Shown: piece after piece, positions 426 to 38,763 of the stretch
Layout of the letters: each line of letters starts with the position of its first letter
Numbering within the stretch: position 1 is the first letter of the stretch
DNA from: Escherichia phage EcoIv28_Lewi
Reading direction: 5' to 3' (one strand)
Length of the DNA stretch: 48,435 nt
Sequence record: OX461087
The notes under the pieces: model-generated
Database searches by the model: none
What the model was told of the DNA's origin: nothing
Seen by the model: the letters and a program-made list of their open reading frames with translations, nothing else
Translations under genes and position numbers: made by a program

Positions 426-914
426 TCATACTCTTGCTTCTTGCGTTTTGCTTTCCCCATGCTGACCTCTTGCGCTGCGAAGAAGTGAATTAAACAGGTT
501 GCTCACATTTACTTCCTGCTCCTGCCATGAGTAACGCCACAGCTTCTTGTGGTGGTCATAGCTTCGCGTCACGTCACCGTTATGAAACATAATGCGGATG
601 CGGCTTTTCACGATTCGGTAATCAATGCCAGTGGATGCGCTGATTTCCTTCACCTCTGCGCCAGCGTTATCAATCAAGTGGCACTTAATAGCATCATCAA
701 TGCCCGCAGCATCATCAGAGATGAAATACTTGTACTGCCACTTATCACCGCGAATCACTGACTTCTCGCGGCGAATAAAGCCAAGCGCGAGCATCTCATG
801 CAGGCGATGCGTAGTTGTGCTTGAATGCTTCCCTCCGCAATGCTTCTCAATGTATGCACGCGTTGCGCCGGGATGCATCATAATCACGCGCATGATTTGC
901 GATTTATAGTCCAT
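426..914 (-). CDS. hypothetical protein (~162 aa)
   Basis: Track ORF 426..968; start moved to internal ATG (M19) that overlaps the stop of the upstream gene by a few nt. Confidence 0.5.
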   Translation of the reverse strand: MDYKSQIMRVIMMHPGATRAYIEKHCGGKHSSTTTHRLHEMLALGFIRREKSVIRGDKWQYKYFISDDAAGIDDAIKCHLIDNAGAEVKEISASTGIDYRIVKSRIRIMFHNGDVTRSYDHHKKLWRYSWQEQEVNVSNLFNSLLRSARGQHGESKTQEARV

Positions 915-1149
915 AATCACGCTCCTCTGCTGCCTGATTGAAGTCATTGGCGGTGTAGAGGTGTCCACCTCTTGTGTTCCATTGCGTAGCCGCTGCCAAC
1001 TTAGTTACATGAACATCACTTGAGCATCCGCACGCACACATGGCGAAATACATCCCATCATCGTTATATAATTTAACTTCGGTACTACCACAGAATGGGC
1101 ACTCAAGCAGCCCTTCTGTGTTCATCATCGGCATATGTGGCGCTGTCAT
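904..1149 (-). CDS. Lar-family-like zinc-ribbon protein (putative restriction alleviation)
   Basis: Track ORF 904..1158; motif LECPFCG...CACGC...WNTR resembles the Lar restriction-alleviation zinc ribbon; GGGGAG RBS before internal ATG. Confidence 0.5.
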   Translation of the reverse strand: MTAPHMPMMNTEGLLECPFCGSTEVKLYNDDGMYFAMCACGCSSDVHVTKLAAATQWNTRGGHLYTANDFNQAAEERDYGL

Positions 1150-1340
1150 TTTAACCACTCCCCTAGATTATTAAATTTAGGCGCATCACCAGACCAGTCG
1201 ATAACATCTTTCTGCTGACTGCGCTTGCGCTGCAGGCGGTTGCGCACTTCCCGCAGTTCGCATTCCAGCCATTCGCGAGTACGATCAACTTCATTAAGTC
1301 GCTGGATTAGCGAGTTTTCGTACAGTTCGTCATGCGCCAT
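1146..1340 (-). CDS. hypothetical protein (64 aa)
   Basis: Track ORF; ATGA overlap with downstream gene; charged coiled-coil-like sequence. Confidence 0.45.
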   Translation of the reverse strand: MAHDELYENSLIQRLNEVDRTREWLECELREVRNRLQRKRSQQKDVIDWSGDAPKFNNLGEWLK

Positions 1341-1400: not shown

Positions 1401-1598
1401 TCAACCGTTACTGGTTGAACTATAAACCACCGCAGATATAAGTTCGTCAGCCTTTTCACGACCTGCAACCTCCGCTTCAAGCGCCAGTGAACACATGGCA
1501 GTTTCCACATACTTAATGGTATCTTCGCGAACGTTAAGGATTTCCATAACCTCGCGCACCTCTTTCTGATATCTCGCTGCTATTTCTTTGTATCGCAT
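1401..1598 (-). CDS. hypothetical protein (~65 aa)
   Basis: Track ORF 1401..1628 trimmed to internal ATG (M11) preceded by AAGGTG RBS. Confidence 0.4.
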   Translation of the reverse strand: MRYKEIAARYQKEVREVMEILNVREDTIKYVETAMCSLALEAEVAGREKADELISAVVYSSTSNG

Positions 1599-1698: not shown

Positions 1699-1905
1699 AT
1701 GCCAAGACCACGACGCGAGCCGATGGACATTATCACCAGCATTGTGGAGAAGCGGCAGCCGCTGACACTCCGTGATGTTCGCTACTTTGCCCGTTGCTAT
1801 GTGGCACTGGCTGATATGCCTAAAGATGATATGTATGATTTGATTCGGGCCAATTTTAATGTTGATGAAAATAATCGGGTGACGATGAAGGGGGATGAGA
1901 AATGA
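1699..1905 (+). CDS. hypothetical protein (68 aa)
   Basis: Track ORF 1663..1905 trimmed to ATG preceded by AAAGGAG RBS. Confidence 0.5.
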   Translation: MPRPRREPMDIITSIVEKRQPLTLRDVRYFARCYVALADMPKDDMYDLIRANFNVDENNRVTMKGDEK

Positions 1906-2414
1906 GGCATAGGAGAGATGAGCCGAGCAGGGAGTTTATATTGAGTTACCTTGACTACAATCCACTAACTGGGGAATTTAAATGGCTAAAGACAAGGAAT
2001 AGGATTGCAGAAAAAGGGAGTGTGGCTGGCTACTTAAAGCCAGATGGATATGTGCAAATAATTCTTTGCGGTAGGGCTTTTCTTGCTCACAGATTGGCAT
2101 GGATATGCATTCATGGTGCACCAGCAAGTGAAATGATTGACCACATCAATGGCATTCGCAATGACAACAGGGCATGCAATTTAAGGGAGGCCAGCAAATT
2201 TGAGAATAGCCATAACAAAGCAATGAACAAAAACAACACTAGCGGTATCAAGGGGGTTAACTGGAGTTCATCACACAACAAGTGGCATGCAAGAGTTGGA
2301 GTAAATGGCAAAAGATTCACAGTTGGTTACTTTTCCGACATAAGAGAAGCGGAAGCAAAAATAAAAGAATTCAGGAGAATGCATCACAATGAGTTCACAA
2401 ATCACGGGCGATAA
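1902..2414 (+). CDS. HNH homing endonuclease with C-terminal AP2 domain
   Basis: Motif DHINGIRNDNRACNLRE (HNH) followed by an AP2-like segment (GIKGVNW...WHARV...GYF...EAE); ATGA overlap with upstream gene. Confidence 0.8.
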   Translation: MRHRRDEPSREFILSYLDYNPLTGEFKWLKTRNRIAEKGSVAGYLKPDGYVQIILCGRAFLAHRLAWICIHGAPASEMIDHINGIRNDNRACNLREASKFENSHNKAMNKNNTSGIKGVNWSSSHNKWHARVGVNGKRFTVGYFSDIREAEAKIKEFRRMHHNEFTNHGR

Positions 2415-9500: not shown

Positions 9501-10010
9501 TCAACCTCCACTAATCATGTGTGATAGTCTCTCGCGTCCGGATATTGCAGCAATCTCCGCCTCTTCAATCGTCTTGTAGTAACCAAGTGAGTGTTGCTTC
9601 TTGTTAAAGAAAATTGTTGCGCGATACAGCCCTGACGGCCTATGTAGTGAGACTCCTTTAATTCCTGTGTGATTATTCTTGTATGGTCCTCGCGTTTTTG
9701 CATGATTAATTTTGCAATCAGTCATTTTCCTGCACCCGGCTGGCGTTATAGATAAATCACTCCATTTAGCACTAAATGGGTTTTGTGAAATAGAATAAAC
9801 ACTCTGTCCTTCAGGCGGAAATTCTCCAGTCATATAAAGCCACGCCAGTCGTCTTGCGGTGTATTGTTTTCCCAGGATTGTTATTAAGTAACAATACTTA
9901 GTTATGCTCCCAGCTAATTTCCCGACTCTGCCACCACGCAACCAGATGAAATCACCAGACTCAGGATAATACCTTAACCATGCCTTTAATTCTTTCTGGG
10001 TAAGCATCAC
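9501..10010 (-). CDS. degenerate HNH-AP2 homing-endonuclease paralog
   Basis: N-terminus and AP2-like C-terminus match the other HNH genes, but the DHING..DNR..NLR motif is absent. Confidence 0.6.
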   Translation of the reverse strand: MMLTQKELKAWLRYYPESGDFIWLRGGRVGKLAGSITKYCYLITILGKQYTARRLAWLYMTGEFPPEGQSVYSISQNPFSAKWSDLSITPAGCRKMTDCKINHAKTRGPYKNNHTGIKGVSLHRPSGLYRATIFFNKKQHSLGYYKTIEEAEIAAISGRERLSHMISGG

Positions 10011-11536: not shown

Positions 11537-12955
11537 CCTGCGACGGATTAGCATTCCGCTACCGCGTTGAACGATGTGGTCTCCAAGTCCATAGCGTAAA
11601 CTATCAATCGCGTGATTGTATTTATCAACTATGTCAGGGAGTATGTTGCCTGTTAACTTATCAACCTTATAGCTATACATTGTCATCTCTTCAATGACGT
11701 GTTTACATCTTGAGTGTACGTAAATCCTGTCGCACCCACGAAGCCACGTAATCCCGTCCTCAATGCTCCCAGGCCATTTTGCGCACGGATGAATATCGAA
11801 TCCAGATCGGCGTATATGGCTTATTGTTTCAGGCCTTGCGCAATCCCCATACCATCTGTACTTCTCTGAATTTGGGAATGCTGAGCGCATCGCTTCTGGC
11901 GTGTCAGTTATCTCAAGGCCAACCTTTGCAAAGTCACGATAGATATATAGATTTCTGCGCCCATCTCCCAAATCTTCTACATATGATTCTGTTGCTGCGG
12001 TTGCATCCTGAGAAAAACCAAAGTCAATGCCATAATATGGACCTCCCCATTCTGGAGATGGCTCGAAGTCCAGCGTTTGCCATTTTCCGCCAAGCACGGC
12101 CTCTTCGGAACGCTTGTTGAATAACCCTTCATACACCCACAGATAGCGATCATAATCCACCGCCTTCATCTGGTTCATGTGCTGTTTAAGTTCTTCCGTG
12201 AACCACGGGTTGTGGACGTAGTTAACATTAACAACAACGATGTCATCATCCTGATATATGCCATCAACCATCTTGTCGATGTAAGGCTCAACAAAGTTAG
12301 TCCACGTTGGGTCCGTCTCTTTATTAGGGTTAAAAACAATGATAATTTCAGAGCCAGCCGCACGGACTGTTGGGATAAGCGTATCCCATGACACCTGACT
12401 GATGTTTTCGGATTCTTCACAGAAGACATCCGTAAGGCCAGCCATGCCCTTGATTGCGGTTATGTTTCGCCAAAGGCCACGAAAAACAAACTTTGATCTC
12501 GTTGTGTGGTGTGTTATCTCGCCATCCACGCAACGATATTCCTGAGTGTGCCCCTTCCTGTTTATCTCATCGACCAGCTCGGCATAGCTTGATTCTTTGA
12601 TTGAGTTCTGTATCTCACGGAAGCATCCGACGCGGCTGTTGCGGAATCTTGCCTTTTCTATCAGGTAAGACACGACGTTAGCCGTCTTTCCGCTTCCCCT
12701 ACCACCATAGAACACTTTGAAGCGACGAGGGTAAAGCAATAGCTCCATCCGCTTTGGTATCAGAATTGTTGGCTCTTCGTTTGTTTCCGAGACACCTGTT
12801 GCTGTCATTTTCAGGCGCTTTATAACATTAGGCGTTCCATCAGCAAGAAGTTTATCAACAATGCCAAACACAGCAGACTCAGGCTTTGCAGTTGAGTTGC
12901 CAACTACCTGTTCAAGTTTTTCGATTGCCACACTTGAGAGTCTTTTTCTAGCCAT
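11531..12955 (-). CDS. terminase large subunit
   Basis: 474 aa; Walker A-like GGRGSGKT; ATPase plus nuclease architecture. Confidence 0.9.
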   Translation of the reverse strand: MARKRLSSVAIEKLEQVVGNSTAKPESAVFGIVDKLLADGTPNVIKRLKMTATGVSETNEEPTILIPKRMELLLYPRRFKVFYGGRGSGKTANVVSYLIEKARFRNSRVGCFREIQNSIKESSYAELVDEINRKGHTQEYRCVDGEITHHTTRSKFVFRGLWRNITAIKGMAGLTDVFCEESENISQVSWDTLIPTVRAAGSEIIIVFNPNKETDPTWTNFVEPYIDKMVDGIYQDDDIVVVNVNYVHNPWFTEELKQHMNQMKAVDYDRYLWVYEGLFNKRSEEAVLGGKWQTLDFEPSPEWGGPYYGIDFGFSQDATAATESYVEDLGDGRRNLYIYRDFAKVGLEITDTPEAMRSAFPNSEKYRWYGDCARPETISHIRRSGFDIHPCAKWPGSIEDGITWLRGCDRIYVHSRCKHVIEEMTMYSYKVDKLTGNILPDIVDKYNHAIDSLRYGLGDHIVQRGSGMLIRRRR

Positions 12956-13463
12956 GATTACAAAACTCCCCGTGATTTTTCTCTCTTTCTTCCATTATCT
13001 TTTTGACTGCATCTTCAATGTTGGCGAACCGGCCAAGGTTAACCATCCTGCCATTTATATTTAATCTTGCCATCCACTTGCATCTTGATTTATCCCAATA
13101 CACACCCTTAACCCCTGATGTGTTGTTTGCCTGTAGCTTTTTGTTGTAACCATTTTGCTGATGGTCAGCCTCTCGCAGATTAACAAAACGATTATCAAGC
13201 GTATTGTTGTTTATGTGGTCTATTTCTTTTTCAGGCCAACTACCAGTCATGTAAAGCCAAGCCAGCCTGTGCGATCTATACCACTTTCTTCCAAAATGAA
13301 TATAGTGATACGGTCGCTTGCTACCAACGGAGCCGCATAATTTTATTGTTCCTGCCGGCTTCCCGGGTTTAGCCCTTCCCTGCTTGTGTGGGTTTTTCCA
13401 TGTAAAAATTCCGGTTTCAGGATTGTAATCAAGGATGTGTTTTAATTCTGCTTGCGTAAGCAT
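12948..13463 (-). CDS. HNH-AP2 homing endonuclease between terS and terL
   Basis: Motif EIDHINNNTLDNRFVNLRE plus AP2-like C-terminus; stop overlaps terL start (ATGGCTAG). Confidence 0.8.
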   Translation of the reverse strand: MLTQAELKHILDYNPETGIFTWKNPHKQGRAKPGKPAGTIKLCGSVGSKRPYHYIHFGRKWYRSHRLAWLYMTGSWPEKEIDHINNNTLDNRFVNLREADHQQNGYNKKLQANNTSGVKGVYWDKSRCKWMARLNINGRMVNLGRFANIEDAVKKIMEEREKNHGEFCNHG

Positions 13464-13562
13464 ATATAGATTCCTCATCAGGGCATCATTGAAGTGAATG
13501 CGGCAGGCGGTGATGAGTCGCTTTTCGGGTGCCCCCTAGCCGCATTGATTATTATAAATCAG

Positions 13563-14006
13563 TTACTGTTGCTGCTCCAGTAATTTCTCCAGCCGCTCAA
13601 GTCTCGCGGCGAGTTCGGTTAACTCTTTCACGTCAAGACCAACCTTAATCATAGACACAACCTGAGACGCAACATCAATTGGTAGTTCTCCACTGGAGAC
13701 AGATTGAATGACGTCCTCTATCTGCTCAACTGGAGTGGCATCTTTGCGGTATTTAAAATTAACCGGAGGTGCCATGCTTTTTTGCACGGGGCTGATGCGC
13801 AGGAATATCTCCTTCAGCATCTGCACGCCTTGAGTCGGGTTTTCCTCAGTCATCCTGATTGACGTCCTGATGAATGCGTCAAGGAATTCCTCCTCTCCAA
13901 GCCCGCATCGCTTTAATGCTTCAATAAGCCTGTTTCTGTAGCTTAATCCTCTGCCAGCAGGCTGGTATTCAGAGGAAAATTTCATTACAGGGTTTGGATT
14001 AGCCAT
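13563..14006 (-). CDS. terminase small subunit (putative)
   Basis: 147 aa immediately upstream of terL, coiled-coil C-terminus. Confidence 0.55.
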   Translation of the reverse strand: MANPNPVMKFSSEYQPAGRGLSYRNRLIEALKRCGLGEEEFLDAFIRTSIRMTEENPTQGVQMLKEIFLRISPVQKSMAPPVNFKYRKDATPVEQIEDVIQSVSSGELPIDVASQVVSMIKVGLDVKELTELAARLERLEKLLEQQQ

Positions 14007-38686: not shown

Positions 38687-38763
38687 GGACGCGTAGCTTA
38701 ATTGGTTAAAGCAACCGACTCATAATCGGCTGATTGAAGGTTCAAATCCGTCCGTGTCCACCA
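38687..38763 (+). tRNA. tRNA, anticodon CAT (Met, or Ile if lysidine-modified)
   Basis: Hand-folded cloverleaf: acceptor GGACGCG/CGTGTCC, anticodon loop CTCATAA, T-loop TTCAAAT, encoded 3' CCA. Confidence 0.8.

Follow-up and report, generated by a model that had tools for sequence, protein, structure and literature searches.

Lar, a 64-residue protein of the Rac prophage of E. coli K-12, reportedly alleviates restriction by EcoKI and enhances modification, as described by King and Murray in 1995. The same protein (b1348), under the name RalR, is reported to cleave DNA non-specifically as an endonuclease and to act as the toxin in a toxin-antitoxin pair of type I (PMC4041452), and the RefSeq name of b1348 follows the RalR toxin reading. 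Lambda Ral, a small early protein, turns M.EcoKI into a de novo methylase (PMC3874165), and pushes type IA enzymes to de novo methylation with partial alleviation of restriction (PMC3874165; PMC12707154). A further Lar homolog, encoded by gene 32 of phage Bas63, scored lower for essentiality in DH10B than in three further strains, of which S17-1 and BW25113 are without intact type I systems; the authors suggested a role outside type I restriction and proposed type IV systems instead (PMC11482910). The basis of the label Lar-like is thin: experiments cover a single, distant member, to which a second activity, that of a DNase, has been ascribed in print, and type I systems still restrict phages with the gene. 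Here we set these systems against a Lar-like gene of a virulent siphophage, whose central part proves to exist as discrete alleles that are exchanged between related phages.

Gene Organization of the Lar-Like Locus

The window, i.e., the whole 48,435-nucleotide stretch of DNA that was analyzed, is a replicon approximately 90% identical, in mosaic blocks, to Skatevirus-like virulent siphophages of Escherichia, Shigella, and Salmonella, with DS8, ST1UNAM, Sa179lw, and BASEL Bas77-81 among its relatives. The Lar-like gene and the features that surround it are as follows:

426-914, minus strand: winged-helix protein, 162 aa (PHROG 1687 'MarR family', full length)
904-1149, minus strand: Lar-family gene for a predicted zinc ribbon, 81 aa (open reading frame; Pfam PF14354; PHROG 599)
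1146-1340, minus strand: ORF of 64 aa (phrog_15697), 89-97% identical in Escherichia/Salmonella relatives
1401-1598, minus strand: first ORF of the operon, 65 aa (phrog_37091), in only about 60% of close relatives
1599-1698, no strand assigned: putative divergent regulatory region (promoter-like hexamers, palindrome, conservation)

The reading frame runs from an ATG at 1149 to a TAA at 904-906 and encodes the 81-residue product MTAPHMPMMNTEGLLECPFCGSTEVKLYNDDGMYFAMCACGCSSDVHVTKLAAATQWNTRGGHLYTANDFNQAAEERDYGL, with CPFCG at residues 17-21 and WNTR at residues 57-60. An earlier note on this DNA had placed a gene at 904-1149 and described its product by the pattern CPFCG...C..C...WN.R. The ORF, CPFCG, and WNTR were all found at these coordinates, whereas the literal C..C is absent: the second knuckle reads C38-A-C40-G-C42 (CxCxC), its CxC being one residue shorter than the CxxC of nearly all relatives. 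When all six frames of the whole window were searched with the expression C..C...C.{1,3}C...W[NDS].[RK], this ORF was the sole match. The ATG at 1149 is favored over a GTG at 1158, since the equivalent Met is the start in 63 of 63 aligned homologs, GGAG lies 8 nt upstream, and it shares an ATGA with the stop codon of the 64-aa ORF before it. At the other end, the last 11 nt of the Lar-like gene are also the first 11 nt of the gene for the 162-aa winged-helix protein. The order of genes around 904-1149 is conserved in 62 viral contigs, and the conserved ends of the gene are under purifying selection (pN/pS 0.17-0.21). Together with the matches to Pfam (E 4e-9) and PHROG (E 3e-13), these data establish that 904-1149 is a genuine gene and not a chance reading frame.

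A leftward operon, made up of small ORFs that overlap, begins at a 100-bp intergenic region and has the Lar-like gene in third place (in order, 1598-1401, 1340-1146, 1149-904, 914-426, 460-284, then further). The winged-helix gene adjoins it in 60 of 62 loci, those of the Klebsiella lineage included. Pfam MarR_2 matches the winged-helix protein below threshold only, and residues 63-135, in its C-terminal half, show a weak likeness to the Ren-like exclusion protein (phrog_142, E 2e-6). Many relatives (e.g., Bas77, Bas79, Bas80, and ASO78B) contain an additional ORF of 222 nt, absent from the window, that separates the 64-aa ORF from the Lar-like gene.

The intergenic region at 1599-1698 separates this operon from a rightward one that includes a 68-aa ORF, an HNH endonuclease gene, and a gene for a DUF6378 protein. 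It contains an extended -10 element TGTGGTACAAT and TTGACT-18-AACAAT on the plus strand, TTGACC-18-AATACT on the minus strand, and a nested palindrome, AATCTAC-GTCAATA-AG-TATTGAC...GTAGATT. The number of matches to the promoter consensus within 1599-1698 was not above that in shuffled sequence; the region is supported by its conservation and not by the consensus scan. It is 76-99% conserved over 62 loci, including those of the Klebsiella lineage, where the flanking DNA is essentially unalignable and the flanking proteins are only 36-49% identical. A promoter is annotated at the equivalent spot in phage ASO78B. On this comparative evidence, 1599-1698 looks like an operator/promoter switch. The earlier note had spoken of a block of small early-looking genes next to a divergent promoter; the operon and the conserved region bear out that context, and early expression is what we infer from it.

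Several features elsewhere in the window were also recorded. Three HNH endonuclease genes are present, all of phrog_99, at 1902-2414 (plus strand), 9501-10010 (minus strand), and 12948-13478 (minus strand); the first also has an AP2-like domain, and many relatives show alignment gaps across the HNH-bearing part of the window. An Rfam scan of the window matched only one tRNA and the int-alpA RNA, neither of them near 904-1149. The tRNA gene is a single tRNA-Met (CAT) at 38687-38763 (plus strand); Bas80 and Bas81 have one tRNA each and Bas77-79 none (PMC11990801 S1 Table). The int-alpA motif at 13483-13546 (minus strand) scores 42.6 bits, above its gathering score of 35.8. It is flanked on one side by an ORF at 13563-14006 and on the other by the HNH gene at 12948-13478, which in turn overlaps the beginning of the large terminase gene; this is an unusual setting for a motif that takes its name from integrase and alpA genes.

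Family Membership and Predicted Structure

Membership of the Lar family, which the earlier note had proposed from the motif and had suggested checking by a profile search, was confirmed. Pfam PF14354 (Lar_restr_allev) matched at 36.9 bits, above its gathering score of 28.6 (E 4.2e-9), with residues 13-60 aligned to profile positions 2-57 of 58, and PHROG 599 'Lar-like restriction alleviation protein' matched residues 6-79 (E 2.9e-13, 51.6 bits). In a BLASTP comparison with Rac Lar/RalR (b1348, from MG1655), 33% of residues are identical across an alignment of 54 aa (pairwise E 2e-7), and the Cys pairs and WNxR of the two proteins fall in register. Six residues, i.e., C17, C20, C40, W57, N58, and R60, are invariant across 47 homologs, and C38 occupies the third Cys column of the family. 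The sequence features of the family, two Cys pairs followed by WNxR, are present, with CxC and an extra C42 in place of CxxC.

The cut-offs of NCBIfam are more stringent. NCBIfam TIGR03655 (anti_R_Lar) matched at 39.3 bits, 0.3 bit short of its curated cut-off of 39.6 (E 6e-10); Rac Lar scores 55.3 bits against the same model. The RalR equivalog model NF007260 gave 18.9 bits, well below its cut-off of 113, compared with 166 bits for Rac RalR itself. No Ral family was among the matches in a Pfam scan at E <= 0.1. Judged from these profiles and alignments, the protein belongs to the Lar domain family without being an ortholog of Rac Lar.

Among 1.84 billion representatives, a profile search recovered 9,815 Lar relatives at E <= 1e-3, few of which match over the full length, terminal segments included. 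Many of the distant members are proteins of 105-490 aa with two to five tandem Lar domains, unlike the characterized Rac Lar. The exact protein is already present in public collections, within a 90%-identity cluster of 438 members, some of them named 'Lar family restriction alleviation protein', and proteins 90-93% identical from Skatevirus-like siphophages (e.g., BASEL Bas80) are already annotated as Lar-like; a single record names a homolog 'zinc-binding domain of primase-helicase'. The Lar-like call is hence correct but has already been made by public annotation, and as annotation it adds little, because pipelines already give the gene this name.

An AF2 model of the 81-residue protein has a mean pLDDT of 85, with a predicted beta-hairpin at residues 25-38 and a helix at 50-57; a C-terminal helix at 67-79 is predicted at low pLDDT. 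We know of no solved Lar structure with which to compare it. Foldseek searches with the model returned nothing at E < 0.4 from the PDB, and a PDB sequence search gave only chance-level matches to zinc ribbons (e.g., eL24 and aIF2-beta). Against BFVD, the best named neighbors were entries for 'restriction alleviation protein', with a probability of 1.0 and weak E-values. The Cys pairs are putative zinc ligands.

A Hypervariable Central Cassette

We compared the gene and its neighbors across 31 relatives of the Escherichia/Salmonella lineage. Proteins encoded next to the gene share 89-100% identity with their counterparts in the window, but for the Lar-like protein identity drops to 52-64% in 25 of the 31. 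This divergence is confined to the middle of the gene:

1087-1149, minus strand: N-terminal segment, codons 1-21, with the first Cys knuckle; nucleotide identity 0.80, pN 0.12, pN/pS 0.21
982-1086, minus strand: hypervariable cassette, codons 22-56, with the beta-hairpin, the C38/C40/C42 knuckle, and the helix into WNTR; nucleotide identity 0.48, pN 0.47, pS 0.73 (saturated)
907-981, minus strand: C-terminal segment, codons 57-81, WNTRxGHLYTAxDFNQAAEERDYGL; nucleotide identity 0.86, pN 0.07, pN/pS 0.17
Upstream 64-aa gene, for comparison: nucleotide identity 0.87, pN 0.04
Downstream winged-helix gene, for comparison: nucleotide identity 0.89, pN 0.05

In an identity profile anchored on the window across 150-1750, the sole interval with a drop, to 40-58%, was 951-1100; the background is 84-93%. 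Codons 1-21 have the consensus M-T/S-A-P-H-M-P-M-M-N-D/E-x-G-L-L-E-C-P-F-C-G, and the tail past WNTR varies with phage lineage (DFNQ, DYKQ, or DYED). Within the variable stretch, the Cys columns and a few other positions (T/S44, D45, and A53) persist.

Clustering of 109 sequences resolved approximately 31 discrete core types. Within types A, B, and E, pN/pS is 0.07-0.15 and synonymous divergence resembles that of the flanks; type H, in which there is little divergence, has a pN/pS of 0.44. Given this purifying selection within types and the flank-like synonymous divergence, the core types are old, stable, functional alleles and not the products of recent hypermutation. At least seven core types were found with differing lineage-specific C-terminal tails or backbones. 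For instance, one locus on an Escherichia/Salmonella backbone (L020) and one on a Klebsiella-type backbone (L045) share 87-100% of nucleotides inside the gene and 30-55% outside it. The pattern indicates that cassettes are exchanged horizontally between phage lineages. Only this cassette architecture and the exchange between lineages add to what is already annotated.

Among the 11 members of the window's own type, 'NEVKLYNDDGMYFAMC[AE]CGCSSDVHVTKLAAATQ', every one sits on the Escherichia/Salmonella backbone, and no other type has the shortened CxC knuckle. Within this type, the window protein alone lacks an acidic residue at three positions (D/E11 to T, E39 to A, and D/E68 to N).

Other origins of the variability were considered and rejected. 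A diversity-generating retroelement (DGR) would use a template repeat and a reverse transcriptase, and blastn-short of the gene against the window revealed no second copy longer than 18 nt; moreover, the variation includes indels and is not limited to particular bases. Point mutation under recent positive selection does not account for a between-type pS that is saturated at 0.73 or for within-type pN/pS ratios that are mostly low. Nor can overlap constraint explain the conserved ends, as the overlaps amount to 4 and 11 nt and pS at the ends is as high as in the neighbors. The cassette pattern fits a host-interface, anti-defense protein with an unspecified or variable target, and discrete exchangeable core alleles mark the Lar-like gene as a likely point of contact between phage and host.

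Restriction of Phages Carrying the Gene

Published plating data are available for five relatives of the window. Bas77-81, termed 'markedly sensitive to RM systems' (PMC11990801), carry the Lar-like gene with three different cores, i.e., one in Bas77 and Bas79, one in Bas80, and one in Bas81. In these assays, which used gene-carrying phages without a knockout control, Bas77-80, with one EcoKI site each, plated on EcoKI with an efficiency (EOP) of about 0.02-0.2 (PMC11990801 S1 Data, S1 Table), and Bas81, with two sites, with an EOP of about 0.6-1.8e-3 (PMC11990801). On EcoCFT_I, for which the five phages have two or three sites, EOP was about 1.5e-2 to 1.4e-4 (PMC11990801). For Bas80, whose protein is 93% identical to that of the window and which has one EcoKI site, the values were 0.04-0.2 on EcoKI and 2e-4 to 1.3e-3 on EcoCFT_I (PMC11990801).

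Restriction of Bas77-81 by EcoKI increases with site number, and no effect of the cassette was visible among the three cores on either EcoKI or EcoCFT_I. A strong cis-acting anti-type-I activity is unlikely, because these phages are restricted by both systems irrespective of the cassette that they carry; a modest, Ral-like effect on type I restriction may exist. The window itself contains three EcoKI sites compared to 7.3 ± 2.5 expected, a depletion that is not significant (three or more sites in 96 of 100 shuffles). With three alleles on near-isogenic backbones, Bas77/79, Bas80, and Bas81, which grow on E. coli K-12, provide ready material for experiments.

Candidate Function and Alternatives

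The reading that we favor, tentatively and as a combined statement that falls a little short of probable, is of an early, host-interface zinc ribbon with a variable target-binding face, for which a type I restriction-modification enzyme is the leading, though weakly supported, candidate target. On this reading, the gene is translationally coupled within an early-looking leftward operon of a Skatevirus-like virulent siphophage, and its Lar-family product would serve as a small, host-protein-binding factor in anti-defense or host takeover. A conserved scaffold, made up of the Cys ligands, WNTR, and the N- and C-terminal segments, would present a variable surface (residues 22-56) to the host target. 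If that target were a type I enzyme, the protein might favor de novo methylation over cleavage in the manner of Lar and Ral, and such action would give only partial, family-specific alleviation. The modulation of host type I restriction that the earlier note had put forward is a candidate function carried over from a distant homolog.

Contact with the host is suggested by three observations: the cassette is the sole strongly divergent stretch in the uniformly aligned sequence of 150-1750, its alleles are discrete and each under purifying selection, and identical or near-identical cassettes occur on distant backbones, those of Klebsiella phages included. A role in anti-defense is suggested by the Ren-like (anti-exclusion) match of the adjoining gene (E 2e-6). 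Several results count against the favored reading, namely the TIGR03655 score (39.3 against 39.6), the RalR score (18.9 against 113), the CxC knuckle, and the restriction of Bas77-81. Function may also not transfer across the family, given that the Lar superfamily has 9,815 representatives and a single tested member, Rac Lar.

A more far-reaching reading is that the Lar-like gene of Skatevirus-like phages and related Klebsiella siphophages is a modular specificity locus, in which a conserved scaffold holds one of 31 or so, or more, anciently diverged cores that pass horizontally between phage lineages, and each core would neutralize or evade a different variant of host defense. We regard this as possible, though doubtful. 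If true, Lar-like would denote a broad, polymorphic anti-defense family and not a single anti-EcoKI function.

The strongest competitor, which we consider unlikely though well worth weighing, is that the protein acts in anti-defense or host takeover on a target other than type I enzymes (e.g., type IV restriction or an abortive-infection sensor), or that the diversity of the cassettes reflects escape from host sensors of the protein itself. The essentiality pattern of Bas63 gene 32, for which its authors proposed type IV systems (PMC11482910), points in this direction, as does the finding that EcoKI and EcoCFT_I restrict Skatevirus phages whichever of three cassettes they carry, with the EcoKI effect tracking site number. 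The approximately 31 exchanged alleles also seem to be more than the few type I families would need. Conversely, the sole experimentally characterized member of the family acts on EcoKI, and BASEL assays without a knockout are compatible with a modest type I effect.

It is less probable still that the protein is a nucleic-acid-binding or regulatory zinc ribbon that partners the winged-helix protein, for example in the control of early transcription or replication. Such a partnership would be in keeping with the overlapping pairing with the MarR-like gene, which is maintained in both the Escherichia/Salmonella and Klebsiella lineages, and with the C-terminal tail, which follows the lineage of the backbone, as would suit a partner within the phage. 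The weak PDB fold neighbors, zinc ribbons of the translation and transcription machinery, and the homolog recorded as a 'zinc-binding domain of primase-helicase' are likewise compatible with it. However, Pfam detected no primase or transcription-factor zinc-finger family at threshold, and saturated replacement of the core would be unexpected in a housekeeping regulator when the operator-like region and the partner gene are 84-96% identical.

A non-specific, RalR-like DNase toxin that degrades DNA during infection is very improbable. The case for it comes from the report of such activity for Rac Lar/RalR (PMC4041452) and from the RefSeq naming of b1348, against which stand the score of 18.9 bits, compared with a cut-off of 113, from the RalR equivalog model, and a hypervariable core that suits a conserved catalytic site poorly, in a fold with no known nuclease motif. 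In addition, neither a RalA-like RNA nor any other Rfam match was found near 904-1149, the presence of a RalA model in Rfam being unconfirmed. Finally, although the ORF is short and lies among many short ORFs, a chance reading frame or non-functional remnant is effectively refuted by the selection and conservation data, i.e., the significant profile matches, synteny in 62 contigs, pN/pS of 0.07-0.24 within the window's cassette type, and the 438-member cluster.

Comparison With Known Systems

The window protein shares with Rac Lar/RalR the CPFCG knuckle, a second pair of Cys residues, and WNxR (33% identity over 54 aa); both proteins are small, and the gene for each lies in a region of early or recombination type in a phage genome. 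It differs from the 64-residue Rac protein in having a conserved N-terminal leader of 15 additional residues, an additional C-terminal tail of 21 residues (GHLYTADDFNQAAEERDYGL), and a CxCxC knuckle, and in falling outside the RalR equivalog (18.9 against 113 bits). Furthermore, no RalA-like antitoxin RNA was found near the gene in the Rfam scan (with the above proviso on the RalA model), and the gene comes from a virulent siphophage, in contrast to the lambdoid prophage that encodes Rac Lar.

To our knowledge, lambda Ral is not a Cys4 zinc ribbon. No sequence relationship between it and the window protein was detected in the Pfam scan at E <= 0.1; Ral is a functional analog in the proposed mode of action (PMC3874165; PMC12707154).

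The nearest relatives are the Lar-like proteins of Skatevirus-like phages (Bas80_0028, XPK40551.1; NC_054648; DS8; Sa179lw), which are 85-93% identical and of the same cassette type. Their genes occupy the same slot, between the 64-aa ORF, or the extra 222-nt ORF, and the winged-helix gene. The window protein differs from these relatives in having T11, A39, and N68 where they have D or E, and the window differs from Bas77, Bas79, and Bas80 in having no extra small ORF upstream of the Lar-like gene.

Conceptually, the locus has an analog in polymorphic modules at the phage-host interface, in which a conserved frame surrounds discrete, anciently diverged central alleles that are swapped horizontally. 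The module of the window is not DGR-made; it differs from such modules in consisting of a predicted zinc-ribbon core of about 35 residues within a putative early gene.
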